The translations under genes were made by a program, and so were the position numbers. Below are positions 3,765 to 33,140 of a stretch of DNA of 64,000 bases, piece by piece. The notes beneath the pieces were generated by a model that was not told the origin of the DNA, made no database searches, and saw nothing but the letters and a program-made list of their open reading frames with translations. Location of the stretch: the NCBI GenBank assembly GCA_024679065.1, contig JAGIQG010000027.1, positions 6,076,001 through 6,140,000 on the forward strand. The letters are read 5' to 3'. How positions within the stretch are numbered: position 1 is the first letter of the stretch; each line of letters begins with the position of its first letter. The stretch is from Sphyrna mokarran. Taxonomy: Eukaryota.

Positions 3765-3965
3765 AAAACAAATTACTGCAGATGCTGGAATCTGGAACTA
3801 AAAAATGAAATGCTGGAATATTTCTGCAGGTCTGACCACATCTCTGGAAAGAACAGAAGTAATGTTTCAAGTCTGCATGACTTGACAAGAAGTCAAGACT
3901 TGAAATATTAGTTCTCTCCACACATGAGTTGTGCTGAACTTTTCTAGCATTTTCTCTTTTGTTTG
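3765..3965. mobile_element. Penelope-derived palindromic short element
   Basis: Starts with 'actgcagatgctggaatctg...aaatgctggaa', the same terminus as the Penelope at 22740. The second half is an imperfect reverse complement of the first. Related half-copies lie at 3325-3415 and 18133-18262. Confidence 0.6.
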
Positions 3966-13233: not shown

Positions 13234-13568
13234 TATCATGGCTGATACTTTTCTCATTTCATTCTCCTCCCTTTTCCCTAATCCTTTATTAATCAAGAAC
13301 CTATCTATCTCTGACTTAGATACTCAACCAGGCCTCCATAGACTTTGTGGCAGAGAGTTCAGCAGATTCACCACTCTTTGGCTGTAGTGATTCCTCCTCA
13401 TCTTTGTTTTAAAGGATTGTCCCTTTAATTTGAGATTGTGCCCTGAGGTTCTAGTTTTTCCTATTGGTGGAAATACCCTCTCCATATCCACTCTACCCAG
13501 GCCTTCTGATATTCTGTAAATTTCAATAAGATTGCACCTCATCCTTCTAAACCCCAATGAGTACAGAC

Positions 13569-14891
13569 TATGAGATCACAGAGTACTTGAAAGTGTATGA
13601 TAAAATGGACTGAGTCAGCATGGCTTCATCATGGGGAGGTCATGTCTGACAAATCTGTTAGAGTTCTTTGAGGAGATAACAAGGAAGTTAAATAAAGGAG
13701 AACCAGTGGAGGTGATTTATTTAGATTTCCAAAAAGCCTTTGATAAGATGCTATATAGGAGACTTAAATAAGTTAAGAGCAAGATCCTGACATGGAGGAT
13801 TGGCTGACTGGCAGAAGGCAGAGAGTGGAGACAAAGGGGTCTTTTTCAGGATGGCAGGCTATGACTAGTGATATGCTTCAAGGGTTGGTGCTGGGACCAC
13901 AACTTTTTACAATATATATTAATGATTTGGCAGGAGGAACTAAAGACACTGTTGCCAAGTTTACAGATAATACAAAGATTTTTAGAGGGACAGGTAGTAT
14001 TGAGGAGGCAGATTCCTCATACGACAAGCTCTTCATTTCAGGGATCATTCTTGTGAACCTCCCTGGACTCTTTCCAAGGACAGCACACCCTTCCTTAGAA
14101 ATGGGGCCTGAAACTGCTCACAGTACTCCAAATGGGGTCTGACCAGAGCCTTATACAGCCTCAAAAGTATATCCTTGCTCTTGTATTCTAACCCGCTTGA
14201 CCTGAATGCTGACATTGCATTTGCCTTTCTAATTGCCAACAACCTGCACATTAATCTTAAGAGAATCTTGAACAAGGACTCCCAAATCCCTTTGTGTTTC
14301 TGATTTCCTAAGCATTTCCCTATTTAGAAAGTAGTCTATGCCTTCATTCCTCCTTCTAAGGTGCATAACTTCACACTTTTCCAATTATATTCCATCTGCC
14401 ACTATTTCGCTCACCTCCTAACTGTCCAAGTCCTTCTGTTGTCCACCTGCCGCCTCAATACTACCTGTCCCTCTGCATATCTTTGTATCATCTGTAAACT
14501 TGGCAACAGTGTCTTTAGTTCCTCCTGCCAAATCGTTAATGTATATTGTGAAAAATTGTGATCCCAGCACCAACCCTTGAAGCATATCACTAGTCATAGC
14601 CTGCCATCCTGAAAAAGACCCCTTTTGTCTCCACTCTCTGCCTTCTGCCAGTCAGCCAATCCTCCATGTCAGGATCTTGCTCTTAACTTATTTAAGTCTC
14701 CTATATGGCATCTTATCAAAGGCTTTTTGGAAATCTAAATAAATCACCTCCACTGGTTCTCCTTTTATTTAACTTCCTTGTTATCTCCTCAAAGAACTCT
14801 AACAGATTTGTCAGACATGACCTCCCCATGATGAAACTGTGCTGACTCAGTCCATTTTATTACACACTTTCAAGTACTCTGTGGTTTCATA
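13569..14891. repeat. Inverted duplication of a CR1 RT segment (13569-14011 vs ~14447-14891)
   Basis: About 440 bp match as reverse complements with only scattered substitutions. Both arms share the same lesions, e.g. 'aagttaagagcaagatcctgacatggagg'. Confidence 0.95.
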
Positions 14892-15019
14892 GTTAATAAC
14901 AGATTCTAAAATCTGCCAATGACCGAAGTCAGTCTAACTGGCTTATAATTTCCTGTCTACTGCTCCCTTCTCTTAAACAGCACTGTTACATACACTACTT
15001 TCTAGTCCTCTGGATTCTT

Positions 15020-18000
15020 CTGATACACCTGCTTGAAAATAAAACCGACAGAACGCATAATCCTCTGAGTTTTATCCTAAACAGGTCTAACTGGTTGTAC
15101 ACAATAAATTGTTTAAGAACTCCATTGCCTTAACCAAGACACTACGTCTATGTATTGTCCAGTCAGACCCTTTTCTAGTGCAGCATAGGCTCATAGGGAG
15201 GTGATCATGGCACTTTTGGCCTTAGGATCCTGTTGCTACTTGTTACAGCCTTGTAAGTCGGGTCCTCCTCATTGAGCCAGATGAACAGTGGCAGGTCCGT
15301 ACCCAACAGACTTATGACTGAACCTGGGTTCCTTTTGCTCTTTCCTTTCCTCCAGAATAAACGGTTTACATTGGTTGATGTGAAATGATTTTGTCCTGGA
15401 AAGCTTTGCTGTATAGGTCATGGCGTTCAAATTGTCAACAGTGCTGTATGGCCTCATGTGCAGTGGTTCAAGCACCCCTAGTGTGGAATTGTGTCTGCCT
15501 ATCAACATGTCTCCTATTTTCTATTCATAATGACACTGCATTCAAGCAGCCACTGGTTCTGGGAGTACTGCTTCCCTAGAATGCTGGCAGCTTGCCAGTG
15601 AATATTTCAAAGTTCCTTCTACAGAAGTCCTAGTCCTGTGTGTGGGAGTACTAATTCTCTTCCTGCCATGAGTTTATGGAAAGAGTATCCTTTTGCTTTT
15701 AGAAGGATTGGCTTGAACTCCCATAAGGATTAGCAAAAGGGTTTAGTCCCACTGCTGAGGGAAATGGTGCTTCCTTCAACCTTTCTTTTTAAAGTAAGGT
15801 TCATGTGCTCAGCAGCACCTGAAGACTGCTGCTTGAGACACATGCCATCCTCTATGCATTCCCAGGAGTTTGGTGTTCTCCCTCTTGAATTGGCCCATGA
15901 AGTGACTCTTCTATCCCTATGTGGAGCAATTCCCACAAGAGAACACTGGTGAGGTAAATGTAATAGCTGATCTACAAGGACAAACTTCCACCCATTTGGA
16001 TAACATATTGACCAGGTCCAAGCAGCAGTTGTTTCCAACCTCTGTCCTTGGTAGTAATCCAATAAAATCTATCTGCACAGATCACCATATCCCCTCAACC
16101 CTCCTTGTGTGTCCTAAGGGTCCCTTCCTTTTTTGGGGTCGGGATTGTTTGCCATGCACTCCAAACTTTTTTCATGAGTTTCATGAAGAGCCTACCTCTT
16201 CTACTCTCTTCAAGATAGCTTTCGGCCTCAGATGTCCTATTTCTGGACAAGTGTGGGTCAATTAAAGGAATTATTCCTAGTGCTATTCAGGAACCACTCA
16301 CCTTTAAAAGGGACCACTCCTTTAAAAAGCAAACCCATTTTCACAGCCATGTCTGCTACCCTGGGCAGACCCTCAAACTTTGCCTCCTCACCAACTTTCC
16401 TAGGGTCACTCTGATAATTCTCTAGATCTCTGCCTGGACCTTGGTTAGGTCTGGGGCACCCCTGAGTCCATCCTATGTTGTTAACATCACCCTGAGTCTA
16501 TCCTATGTTCTGGATTGCTGTGACTGGTCCTGTTAAACAGGATTCCCAGAATTATCTATTTCTTCCTCCCTGTTTTATTAGCTTATCAGCCTTAAAGTTT
16601 TTCTGCTGTCTTGGTCTGACTTGGAGTGTTCTTTCAGTTTGTGGATGTAGAAGCCTTCTCCACTGTCTATGGCTGCATAGATTGTTTGCAACATAGGAGC
16701 TGTTGGTAGGGGTTTCCTGCCTGAAAAATCATGATGACTTTAAATCACCAAAAACTCTGTACAAGAGTTGCAGGTGAACAGTCAGTCCAAACAAATGGTG
16801 TAAGCAATGGGAAGTTCCTCCAGGTGTATAATGATATATGCCATGCCATGAGTTCTGTGTATTGGGTAGCCATGGTATTGGGGAATTTATTTGTCTTAAG
16901 GTGTGGGATTTATGAACCTATGAGGTATGTCCCTTTTTATGAGAAAACTTCTTTCTACAAATCATTCTACGATTTTACAATTCTAACTTGAACCATCAAC
17001 ATAGATATCTCGACTAGTAGGGTGGACTGTGGCCACGAACCTTATGTCATGATCCCAAACTTCTTCAGTTGTGCACCTATGAGATTCTCCTGCACATGTG
17101 AAGTTCATAGTGAGTTTGGGTTCCTCGCATCTTCAAATTCAGCTGAGATAGTAGTAAAGTCCAATGTGAAATGCAAGCTTTGCTCTCTGTGCTATCCTTT
17201 ATCCTACTGTCCAGCAGCATTTGAGTGGGAATATGATGGGTTAGCAATGTGATGAGTGAGTGCCTCATGAAAAGCAGAATGCTTTACAGGTCAATATGTG
17301 GCAAAAAGATACCTTTCGCAGATGGACTACCCTTGCTCCATGCCTGCAAGGACTATTGACACTGCACCATAGGCCTTAGCTTGCTGTGTTAATCCTGGAG
17401 CAACACTGCACCCAAGATATCCCTACTGCTGGTTGTCTCCAAGAAGAAATCCTCAACCCCATTAATCACCCCTAGTGCAGATACCATTTGAAGGTCCTCT
17501 ATGAGGTGCATGAATGCTGCCTGGCAATTCTCATCCATTCACATTTTATTCCCTTTTGGGAAGAGCTGGAGCAAAAAGACTGCTGTGGTGATATAGTCCT
17601 CAATGAACTCATGGCAGTACCCTGAGAGTCCCAGGAAAATCTGTAATGTTCTTTGATACTGGCAACTCCTGCACTGCTTTCTTCTTTGCGTGATCTATGC
17701 TGCGCTCTTCTGCCCAGGTGGTCAAACCCAGAAATTTTACTACGGACTGACTAATCTGGGCTTTCATGGATTTCACCTTGAATCTGGGCCTAGCAATTCT
17801 GCTAAGAATAGGCTGTCTTTTTCCTGAGAAGACCATCTCTGAGAAGAGCAAATCATCCACGTGTTGGACTGATGGGCATAGTAGGCTGAACACCTCAAAT
17901 ATATCAGCCACGCTCTAGTGGAAGATAGGCTGTTGTGGAATCCCTAGAGAAGAGAAGTCCAAGAATGTTGGCCTTTAAATGAAAACAAACAAACCCCTAC

Positions 18001-18130
18001 TGGTCTTTCTGTTTTAAAGGAATTGGCCAGAACCCTTTTGAAATATCCAGCACAAATGTGGTTGTGGTGGCTGCAATGCTTTGAGGTTGGCTACTGCCAC
18101 TACAGTAGGCATGTATCCTGGAGTGTCATC
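15020..18130 (-). mobile_element. pol: Decayed endogenous retrovirus-like pol (RT, tether, RNase H, integrase); loki/foamy-like motifs
   Basis: Minus-strand translation with stops and frameshifts. RT: FVLDISKGFWPIPL (~18015-18056), WTSLL*GFHNS, VQHVDDLL. Tether: FLGLSGYC, LETTSS..LGAVLLQ, ITLLTHHIPTQMLLD. Second RNase H: DIYVDGSS (16986-17009), TQYTELMA, YIHKLKEHS..ADKL. Integrase: VQIDFIGLLP, SKWVEVCP, QSSGAAEHMNLTLK, and C-terminal PY..VD..Y..FHINQCK. Confidence 0.85.
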
Positions 18131-18132
18131 AG

Positions 18133-18262
18133 CAAAATACTGCAGATGCTGAAATCTGAATCAAAAACAGAAAATACTGGAAAATCGCAGCAGGTCAGAC
18201 AGCATCAATGGACAGAATACAGCCAATGTTTCAAATCTGGATAACCCTTACGAAGAGCTCTG
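18133..18262. mobile_element. Penelope-derived terminal fragment abutting the retroviral RT
   Basis: 'aaaatactgcagatgctgaaatctgaatcaaaaacagaaaatactggaaaatc' matches 22745-22800. Confidence 0.65.
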
Positions 18263-20082
18263 CACATCAAGCAAATCTTGCTGAAAGATCTAGTGATCTC
18301 TCTCTGCTGTGGATTTCACCTCTTGTGCTTTATAGTGATTCAGCAGCTACTTGCAGCAGTGCATACTGAGCTTTGACAGCATAGAATAGCAGTGATTTGA
18401 TTGGCTTGTCCAAGGAGCTAATCAGATTTAAAAAACTTAAACAGACACACAAATAAGAAGCAAAAACAGGAAAGTCAAATCACTTGTTTAAAAAACTTTG
18501 CTTTTAATAAATTAAAGATTGAAACACACAGGGTTCTTCAGAAGGACTTCTTCAAAATACAGATAATGAAAATATAACAATCAGTACTCCAACTTATAAA
18601 TCAAAGAAAGAGTTTAATAAAGAAACTTCATTACTCTGAATTTGGAGGCCGTGCCCCGGGCCATTCGAAACACTCCACAATTCCAAACAGGTTCTTATTT
18701 ATAGTGAGTCAGTTGACTATTACATACTCTGTAATTGGTTCCATGGTTTACTGGGTCAGTTGATCCTTATAGCTTGTTACCATTGGTCACATTAATCCAA
18801 TACAAAGTTGTCACTGGTTACATTCTAACAGGGTGAAGATATAAGCTGCAATATTCTGAAGCTTTTTAAAGCAAAATTTCAAAAATATTGTTCAAAATTT
18901 ACTAAATTTTAAATTATTTTTCAGGAGCCAGTTCTGTTCATCAAATGCTATTAGTTATATCACCATTTGAAAACTTTGTTATAATTTATTCAATGAGGTG
19001 TAACGTTTTAAAGGATTTGGAACCATGAAAGAAAGTTTTGAGAGTGTTTGGAAAGACAAAGAGATGAGATGAAGAAATTTGAAGTAGAAAATCGATGGGG
19101 TAATAATAAAGTAGAACATATGGACCACTGTCAGACAAAAAGAACTCAGAGGTTACTGAGGCAGGGGTAGAACAAGGCTGTTAAAATACAAAGTAGAGAG
19201 GATTTTGAAATTGATTTGGAGAAGTATAAGGAGACTAGCAATAGTGAGAAGCGAATCGTGTGGTTTTGAATGGTTGATTAAGGGTACAGGCAGTTCCATT
19301 CTGATGGTGTTGCAGTTTATGGAGAATAGATTCTTCCTCCCTGCTCCTGCTCTGCCTATTTGTAGCTTGGTTGCAAAATCAGCAAAGTGAATCATGATCT
19401 GTAGTATAAATCTTTCATATAATGGATAGATATTTGAAGGCAAGATGGCATAAAATTGAGAATGAATTGAATATATAGCTTCCCCCCCCAACAATTCATA
19501 AAAGTAAGTTGTAGCCAACTGCCACTACATCAATAATGTAAGCTGATTTATCTCTTTGTGCAAAAATACTTGTATCTGTTTGCTTGGACCTTTGAATGAC
19601 TATAGCTGGAAATGCTGCAGAAAGAAGGAATCAAACTTGAGTCATAGTCCTTAAGATCCTCAAGACAGAATATCATGTGCATAAGTTAGTAATGAATCAG
19701 TAAATATTAGCAAAATAAGTCTCAACATCAGGTTATGTTACATTATTAGCAAAATGACTTGGTTATATGATTTTGGAATCATGAGTCAAACAGATTGAAT
19801 AATTAAATAGTTTTTACTCTTTGCAGCCATTTCTGTGTGTCATCACAGAATGTCCTTTACAGCACTTGATTTCAAAACATTCATATCTTTATTAGAATTT
19901 TGTTAAAGGTCATAAACCAGCTTTCATTTCTCTGATTTTATGGCTTACTATTTAATTGGGTGATAGTTCTTATGACCCTTGCACTGTATTTATTAGCAGC
20001 TTTCTCACTTACAAGATTTGATTATGGAAATTCGATTGTACCTGTTCAGCATCTCAATATTTTAAGAAACTCTTAAGCTGAA

Positions 20083-30431: not shown

Positions 30432-33140
30432 GTTTTGATGCAACAAATGTGGAAAATTGAACTACTTTGCCAAGTGCTGTAGATCCAAACCACAGCAGCC
30501 ATCAGCAACGTAGGTGTTCAATCCTCCAGGGATAGGAGCGACAGTAAGTGAAGCTACAGTCTCCAACAACACTGTTGCAATAGTATTGACAGTGGCACCA
30601 AAAATGGCATAACGCAGACTTAGTCAATATTGACACTGGACTGAAGGATAATATACCATCCAGCCAAAGGTTACAGGAAATAAACCTGCATGCAACACCC
30701 AGACATACCTCATAGCTTATGATTTGCAGTCATAGAACATAGAACGTAGTCCATCCTGAAGTAGCGACCTTCCATTCCTCAGAAGGAAATTTCAAGTTCC
30801 GTATAGCTAATCAGAACATAAAACCAGTACCAGGACTTCGGGATAGTATTGCATTAGAGCTCATTCAACCTGGTCCAAAAGTGTATGCTGTGCTCTCCCA
30901 AGGCCCTATAGAAGAGACCTGGAGTGGGTTTCAGCAATGATGGCTGTAGTAAAATGATGGCACCGTCAGGATATGTATTCATGCAGTGCAGTTGAACAAA
31001 GTACTACTCAGACCACGTCACTCTGAAGACAGCAGAACAGGTGATAGTAGAAATGCCTAATGTCAAGGTGTTCAGCATTTTCAATGCAAAATGTGGTATC
31101 TGGCAGGTCCTGTTTGAAGAGGAATCCTCAACAATATCACATTCATTTTTCTGTTTTCTTTGTATGTCGAATAGGATATTCAGAGGCAGTGAGGTTTACC
31201 AGTGGTGCATAGAGTGATTCTTGCAGGCCAAGCATGAGAAACCATTGTTGATGACATCTTTGTTTGGGGCTGTACTATACAAGAACTCATCTCATCCTTG
31301 ATAGAATCAGGGCCATCCAGTTAAAGCTTCATCCTGTGAAATACAGATTTGATACTTAGGTCATTTAGTCACAGCCAATGGTGTAAAGCCTGATGTAAAT
31401 AAGATAATGGTGGTACAACCGATGGCTTTTCCTCTGGACAAACATTCTTCATAGCGATTTGCTGATTTGACAAATTAATCTTTTGTTTATCTTTTATTGT
31501 AAGGAGGTCACTGATTCTGTTTATCAGCTTCTTTACCAGGATGTTGAATGATGCTGGTAAGAGCTCCACACAACAGTCTTCAATGCAAAATGTGGTATCG
31601 GGATAGTATTGCATTAGGGCTCATTCAACCTGATCCACATTAAGCGTTTGCAGCTTCATTGGTATTACAATATTTTTGTTTGAGCACCCCTACTCATCAG
31701 CAGACAGCCCCAGCAACTGACTTGGTGCAGTCTGCATGCAGAGACTTGTTATGCACAGTCTGAAAAGGAACTATTTGCTTTAGTTTTTGCCTGTCAGAAA
31801 TTTTATGATTTCATATATGGTCATCCTACAACTATTGAAACAGATCACAAACCATTTGTAACTTCTCTATACTGCATCTGCATGGCTACAGTGCATCATG
31901 CTAAAGTTGCAATGCTACAACCGTCGAGTTGTCCACAAATGTGGCAAGAAGTTGTACTTAGCTGATGGCCTCTCCAGAGCTATCTTACCCATCATAGATT
32001 GGCAGATTGAGGAAGCCACAGACATTATAGCAATAGATATGTTATCCTTGCATCGAATTCAGGAACTCAAATGGGCCTTACAGGCAGATATCACATGCAA
32101 GCAATTGCACAGTGTTGTCATGAGAAGCTGGTCAGAATCCTCAAGTGTGCTTTCCCATGAGCTCCACACGTCTTTGCCATAATAGATAAATAACCGTATG
32201 TAGCCAGTGATTTGTCATTCCAACTGCCCTCTTCCAGAGGCGCTACACAAAACAACTACACCAAGCGACATCTAGCTTGGAAGCAACCAGATACAGGGTT
32301 ACGGAATTATGTACTGACCTTCCATGTATGTGAATATGGAAAGTGAATCTTCAGATGTGTACTGTACAATGCGCTCAAAGTGCATCAAGCAAAAACTGTT
32401 GCATTTATGAGGTAATTCACAGCAGTTGACATTTTCAATTGGAGTGGTAAACAACATTTAGTCATATTTAAATAATTTTCTGGCTTGTTTGAATTCAACT
32501 ACCTGCCAAAATGACGAGTAAAATGTAATCATCAAGCTTAAGAGACACTTTGCCACACATTGCATCCCACAGAAACTCATGACAGACAATGCTCATCAGT
32601 TGTCTCTGCTGAATTTTGCAACTTTGCACGCACAGTGGACTTCTGAGCATATCATGAGCAGTCCCCTATATCCACAGTCAATTAGTTTGGCAGAAAGGAC
32701 AGTTTGCTCAGTCAAACATTTTCCAGAGAAATGTGCATGGGATTGTAGAGCCTACAATGATACTCCAGTTTTCAGCCTACAAATCTACCATGACAGGGCC
32801 TGCCTATGTCAGCACAACTTTGTTCTAGGCACACCAGGACCATGATTCGTCATTGCTAATTCTCTGCTGCACCTAAACCTGAAACCAATGTGAATGATGC
32901 CCTACTGCAATGCAGATTGAGAAGTAAGATGCACAGTGATCAAGATGCCTACAGACTTGATCTTCTGATCGATTTGATGTTTGATCACCAGATCAAACAT
33001 CCAGAATTTGGACTGTATGTGGCCATGGTAGTGGTAATACTTTGCAATTGAACAGTTGAATGGTAGCTTCAGATAGTGCTTACCTATGCAAGTAATCGTA
33101 TCAACTTCACCAATTAGCAGAACCAGCATCCAACAGATAA

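Follow-up and report, generated by a model that had tools for sequence, protein, structure and literature searches.

In the retrovirus cycle, reverse transcriptase (RT) copies RNA, a second RNase H degrades the RNA strand while the old RNase H serves as a tether, and integrase (IN) carries out integration. Odin retrotransposons also have a dual RNase H, and their RT is sister to lokiretroviruses (loki) plus retroviruses. In cartilaginous fish, the available text of Han 2015 (PMC4422223) describes an elephant-shark endogenous retrovirus (ERV), CmiERV lineage I, that clusters with snakehead retrovirus (SnRV). Clade Huo is described, in the accessible parts of the sources, as infecting all major vertebrate lineages (Xu et al. 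2018, PMC6001957; PMC8922424), 2,843 clade III RT loci are given for 6 chondrichthyan genomes in the part of PMC11089739 at hand, and a foamy-like ERV is reported from catshark in that of PMC10699275. Here we analyzed a 64-kb stretch of Sphyrna mokarran DNA, called the window below, and found in it a pol fragment that we hold, with high confidence, to be an old ERV pol, dead and truncated, grouping, outside the loki and foamy viruses, with elements of sharks, coelacanth and frogs and likely class III and SnRV-related (Huo; CmiERV-I).

The fragment lies at 18121-15340 on the minus strand and comprises RT, tether, second RNase H and integrase. The closest protein in our reference set was P0171, with 423 summed tblastn bits against 255 for the next protein and 172 for the best loki protein, and P0171 itself has both the RT_RNaseH and RNase_H Pfam domains. 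A frameshift-aware alignment matched 18121-15638 to its residues 244-1089 at 48.4% identity over 798 columns (score 1217, compared with 38-51 for 5 shuffles), and two further proteins, P0003 and P0180, carried the match on to 15342-15359, the integrase C-terminus. Taken frame by frame and without read-through, tblastn to P0171 gave E=1e-70. The nearest named relative is a protein from the shark Heptranchias perlo (P0002, XP_067852025), at 44-51% identity, and identity to P0003 was 33% over 897 columns. With one frame as a phmmer query, the named top matches came from Heptranchias, bullfrog (a 'NYNRIN-like' Pol), coelacanth and turtle; Gypsy-type proteins were 2 of the first 9 matches, and most of the weak matches were Gypsy-like. 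Pfam on the three raw frames, with stops read as X, returned the tether-type domain of Table 1 alone, below its curated cut-off.

A first-pass annotation made from the letters of this DNA had listed a series of pol motifs, and all of them are indeed on the minus strand, in the order that it gave and spread over three frames. The domain succession that it proposed (RT, tether, second RNase H, integrase) is borne out by the P0171 alignment, by Pfam and by an RNase H profile. It had also described the frames as broken, and the alignment to P0171 contains 18 frameshifts and 24 stops, that is 42 breaks in 2.5 kb; the fragment therefore cannot encode Pol. The element begins inside RT at a short repeat and ends about 320 nt past the integrase, where a LINE fragment starts. 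Protease and env, reported as not visible, were not recovered by our searches either: the protease and RT start (P0171 residues 1-245) had no match upstream of the fragment, with a score of 40 that equals the shuffle level, and no env remnant was found in the window. An LTR of its own was likewise not found in the window, and no gag was recognized there. Among the sequencing runs listed, the element occurred in no RNA run and in one DNA run, which may be the source of the assembly itself. The pol fragment is real, retroviral and dead, and it has most likely no present function. In its ancestor, RT would have copied RNA, the second RNase H would have degraded the RNA strand with the old one acting as tether, and IN would have performed integration. 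This ancestor presumably entered the germ line, after which the 5' half, env and LTRs were probably lost via deletion and later repeat insertions, and the remainder may have decayed without selection on the reading frame.

Table 1. Parts of the pol fragment and flanking repeats, in window positions.
Feature	Position	Strand	Basis
RT, C-terminal two-thirds, with stops and frameshifts, N-terminus absent	17520..18121 (inner boundary approximate)	-	P0171 residues 244-452; trees
Tether (degenerate Gypsy-type RNase H)	17110..17520 (approximate)	-	Pfam RT_RNaseH_2, E=2.5e-5; motifs at 17442, 17238
Second RNase H, retroviral-type, broken	16560..17010	-	Profile score; motifs at 16997, 16864, 16787, 16640, 16587
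Integrase: zinc finger, core, C-terminal part, broken	15340..16260	-	Motifs at 16234, 16167, 16069, 15810
Post-pol tail of the element	15014..15340	-	67% over 327 nt to genomic copy L002
LINE RT fragment, outside the retrovirus	14020..15000 (approximate)	-	LINE RT motifs in frames; repeats elsewhere in the window
Short interspersed repeat by the element's 5' break, outside the retrovirus	18131..18245	.	Families D14/D15; copies near 3767, 22744
Solo-LTR-like repeat, high-copy, about 300 bp	18534..18830	-	TG..CA ends

Within the RT, LDIS is found at 18047, GFHN near 17950 and xVDD at 17863. The region that the first-pass annotation had taken for a second RNase H matched a profile built from 55 retroviral RNase H domains, with P0171 left out, scoring 48.5 bits when read through with X and 24.1 bits in one raw frame, against a best of 3.1 bits among the 128 of 200 shuffles that were reported at all. 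Integrase DNA was 67-69% identical to the genomic copy L002. In the post-pol tail, a pyrimidine tract runs up to an AG at 15029 and is a putative env splice acceptor. The tail after the L002 integrase, used as a query, returned among the matches listed no retroviral-tail copy and only a common repeat. The LINE fragment, which we take to be CR1/L2-like, abuts the element where env would begin. Just downstream of the element, the stretch 13567-14893 contains a pair of inverted LINE fragments, which make up long inverted arms (each 93-97% over 130-179 nt).

We also considered the solo-LTR-like repeat on the other side as the element's own LTR and rejected it, as it is high-copy and no pol was found within 1.5 kb in any of the 11 copies read. 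It was 80-87% identical to the 40 other matches that were scored out of 3270 candidates, and 3 of those 11 copies had an exact 5-bp target duplication. It is likely a separate, younger insertion.

Trees were computed under LG+G4 with one search each, on RT (71 of 129 RT rows, then 62 rows), on IN (62 of 104 rows) and on RT plus tether (50 rows, without class II). Surplus Gypsy rows were omitted, as were near-duplicates among the epsilon-like and the sister-family loci; no tree contained named ERV-L elements, Odin elements, CmiERV-I or foamy-like ERVs of fish, and the IN tree contained neither NYNRIN nor CGIN1. The reference set consisted of matches to a bullfrog Pol query. As loki proteins were picked by their match to the loki rows of Dataset S2 of PMC7947760, and foamy-type (6 RTs) and class II RTs were taken from viral contigs by motif, the class labels rest on motifs and tree position. 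P0188 is the SnRV Pol: it fits the SnRV row of that paper and shares 99.4% identity with pol in L124, a 10,688-nt genome among the viral contigs. With P0003 as a query, no related loci were found in the viral contigs.

Results showed that in the 62-row RT tree the pol fragment groups with P0171, Heptranchias P0002 and the genomic copy L013 at 100/95 (99-100/95 across RT trees). Around this group, a wider RT clade of frog, coelacanth, turtle and shark 'NYNRIN-like' proteins received 86/92 and 92/81 in two RT trees. The 23-row version of this clade (92/81) lost its turtle members in the RT plus tether tree, in which a 15-row clade of shark, coelacanth and frog elements including the pol fragment had 95/95. 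In the 62-row RT tree, loki (100/100) and foamy viruses (100/100) were each monophyletic, and the branch parting loki from all other retroviruses was supported at 100/98. The RT of the pol fragment falls within the non-loki retroviruses in this tree, which argues against an Odin element. SnRV Pol was weakly (78/77) on the same side as the 23-row clade in the best RT tree and took no resolved position in the RT plus tether tree; the label 'SnRV-related' therefore leans on the published placement of CmiERV-I, with which our comparison was made by eye.

Could the fragment nevertheless be an ordinary Ty3/Gypsy retrotransposon, or an epsilon or gamma ERV? The sole raw-frame Pfam match is a Gypsy-type RNase H and the weak phmmer matches lean the same way, but a second RNase H is present, Gypsy is split off at 100/100, and epsilon and gamma elements form a different clade, class I, outside which the RT stays in both the RT and the RT plus tether trees. 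The degraded Gypsy pol that lies in the same window at 30924-32731 on the plus strand (RT, RNase H, IN; best match P0372) lacks a second RNase H (best score 4.5 bits), confirming the contrast drawn by the first-pass annotation. Its reading of a retrovirus-type pol outside Gypsy, gamma and epsilon was also right, the RT being on the retrovirus side of the 100/100 and 100/98 branches. Both identities are refuted by the RNase H score and the trees, and we give them practically no weight. The annotation went wrong in taking the RT motifs as loki or spumavirus style, and from this a lokiretrovirus or foamy-like ERV as the source. The 24 loki rows read have D.A.G[FY]WT, CPFGY.NSP (for the frog rows, PFGYINxG) and [IS]YVDD, and tetrapod foamy RTs have DL[AS]NGFWAHP and LPQGFLNSP, whereas the pol fragment and its relatives read LDISxGFW.IPL, GFHN and QxVDD, which is the style of SnRV. 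The AU test rejected a grouping of the fragment with loki (p=0.0019) and with the tetrapod foamy viruses (p=0.012, 6 foamy-type RTs), and rejected both again for the 5-row subfamily (p=0.009 with loki, p=0.005 with foamy). When the frames were picked via a loki or a foamy protein, the fragment was still placed with P0171 and P0002 at 99% local support. A first chondrichthyan lokiretrovirus would agree with the tether plus RNase H, with a whole-pol alignment score above that of SnRV (best loki 293 vs 130; P0171 1217, frog proteins 476-521, best foamy 142), with an IN grouping with loki that is not rejected (p=0.37), and with the gap left in 2021 by 0 of 6 chondrichthyan genomes containing loki, as given in Fig. 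S1 of PMC7947760. Against it are the RT motifs, both AU results and the loki-guided placement, and none of the top 30 loki-RT matches in the genome is loki. On RT, under the model used, the loki reading is refuted; its chance is very slim. A foamy-like ERV of the fish kind, in clade Tu with such elements as CmiFLERV or ERV-Spuma-Sca, is barely more credible. It would account for the DxxxGFW style, and foamy-like ERVs are known in cartilaginous fish according to the part of PMC10699275 at hand. However, the available fish foamy-like rows, CmiFLERV and XtrFLERV not among them, read IDLANGF, LPQG[YF][KR]NSPN and YIDD, unlike the pol fragment; the AU rejection concerns tetrapod foamy viruses, with the fish elements compared by motif only, and the genome gave no Spuma_A9PTase match in a search without a working positive control.

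Integrase leaves more room. In the IN tree, neither a grouping with loki (p=0.37) nor one with SnRV (p=0.34) was rejected, the best tree did not group the pol fragment with loki, and the backbone was an open polytomy. Identity of the fragment's IN was 31% to loki vs 21% to SnRV, and that of P0171 was 44% vs 34%. These data might be explained by a separate unnamed deep lineage in sharks, coelacanth and frogs, with a weak tie to SnRV and an integrase shared with loki and NYNRIN. Such a lineage fits the clade of its own without SnRV at 95/95 (RT plus tether), the IN results and the automatic 'NYNRIN-like' names of the relatives, as well as the loki IN placed next to CGIN1 in the available part of PMC7947760. 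We nonetheless consider it improbable: CmiERV-I, with the same motifs, was already published (PMC4422223, as far as its available text goes), NYNRIN was outside the tree with the open IN backbone, and its departure from the preferred reading is largely one of name. Somewhat less doubtful, yet still unlikely, is a distinct deep lineage apart from SnRV proper in which a non-loki RT goes with an integrase of the loki/NYNRIN type and envelopes have been swapped, gamma-type in the elephant shark and long F-like here. If true, this lineage would link lokiretroviruses to the other retroviruses and could have been the donor of mammalian NYNRIN.

Related copies in the genome are part of the evidence for the preferred reading, an old and likely SnRV-related class III ERV. 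Broken relatives are many, the count being a lower bound, and L002, L013 and L006 are nearest. A sister family (L097-L112) has paired LTRs of about 800 bp, 76-79% identical, in 5 of the 10 regions fetched, and is therefore old; the two published rates for LTR dating, as quoted in the sources at hand, differ tenfold. Clear env-like remnants were present in 4 of the 10 sister-family regions, and L006 matched them weakly (scores 70, 96 and 101 vs 38-58 for shuffles). In the sister-family copy L103/L104, less than 1 kb separates pol from the 3' LTR. P0397, a natural relative of the env remnants, combines a cysteine-rich part with a coiled coil and a hydrophobic anchor but lacks a gamma-type CX6CC. 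By eye only, the env of the relatives suggests an F-like fold and resembles the C-terminus of loki env. The env pieces had no match to PF00523 (paramyxo/pneumovirus F) or another Pfam fusion family, the predicted model had a low-confidence pLDDT of 46, and no PDB match fell under E=0.66. Compared with SnRV env, identity was 27% over 106 aa (E=0.095), and SnRV gag, env and accessory ORFs had no match in 11 regions. The env remnants differ from the env of CmiERV-I, which is gamma-type, suggesting that envelopes were swapped. The first-pass annotation had proposed an F-like env as a loki marker; it is not loki-specific, given that the title of PMC11468914 ties foamy Env to paramyxo/pneumovirus F.

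We also looked for true loki elements in the genome. A stricter first look with loki Pol gave a best match of 25-34% identity, and none was found among the best 30 of 150 scored loki-RT matches (986 candidates); worn loki fragments may stand further down the ranking. The loki motif pattern had 7 matches in the genome vs 11 in the control. The literature on lokiretroviruses had no title on sharks among the matches listed. Most of the best 30 of the 150 scored matches belong to an abundant broken family (L149-L178) that is closest to P0184. Two other groups of loci were noticed: a young epsilon-like ERV family (L035-L063, e.g. G000:C905:963008-965725) whose open pol frames reach 1456 codons, and ERV-L-like loci (L171, L172, L177; G000:C1:178764456-178767929) with long open frames, which formed a long branch without resolution in the tree and are similar in their RT and RNase H motifs to the HERV-L/MuERV-L rows in the available part of PMC7947760.

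Of the first-pass reading as a whole, the retrovirus-type pol stands, and so does the statement that no lokiretrovirus is known in chondrichthyans, to the extent of the 6 genomes in that Fig. S1, while the loki or foamy-like identity does not. It had also suggested that the element could fill a gap in sharks; novelty is probably refuted, as this kind is already catalogued in a chondrichthyan according to the text available of PMC4422223, and the lokiretrovirus gap in sharks remains. As a likely member of an SnRV-related group already reported in cartilaginous fish, the pol fragment is an ordinary fossil, and the locus matters little: class III ERVs are many in this genome of cartilaginous-fish type, and the fragment is a single worn copy. 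The interest lies in the family, whose deep placement is not settled by the trees, whose integrase is no further from loki than from anything else outside its own clade, and which seems to carry two unrelated envelope types. These points are relevant to domain shuffling near the root of the retroviruses and to where NYNRIN came from.

Compared with known systems, the pol fragment shares the tether plus second RNase H with lokiretroviruses (Wang and Han 2021, PMC7947760, in its available part) and differs from them in RT motifs and RT placement, and the window has neither env nor smc gene. With SnRV it has in common the RT motif style and the side of the 78/77 RT branch, but overall similarity is low (score 130), and SnRV Pol has an extra stretch at about residues 760-930, between RNase H and IN, which P0171 lacks. 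The frog and coelacanth 'Protein NYNRIN-like' Pols (P0003, P0167, P0168) and Heptranchias P0002 are in the same clade and have the same domain order; several of the frog copies are intact, and their names come from automatic annotation and denote no described family. In CmiERV lineage I, a chondrichthyan element, six pol motifs from RT, tether, RNase H and IN match by eye, as far as the available part of PMC4422223 shows: scaffold 2 reads LDISNGFWSIPLKPEDQ, LPQGFHNSP, YIDGSS, AQYAEL, IQIDFIG and YHVNQLK, and the pol fragment reads LDISKGFWPIPLKQKDQ, GFHNS, YVDGSS, TQYTEL, VQIDFIG and FHINQCK. Scaffold 2 also has, by eye, a similar pyrimidine tract and AG after pol. On the contrary, CmiERV-I is described in that available part as complete, with LTRs 3.3% apart, and its env is gamma-type by eye (LQNRMALD, CX6CC), whereas the pol fragment is pol alone and its relatives in the genome have a long-TM env-like remnant of another kind.
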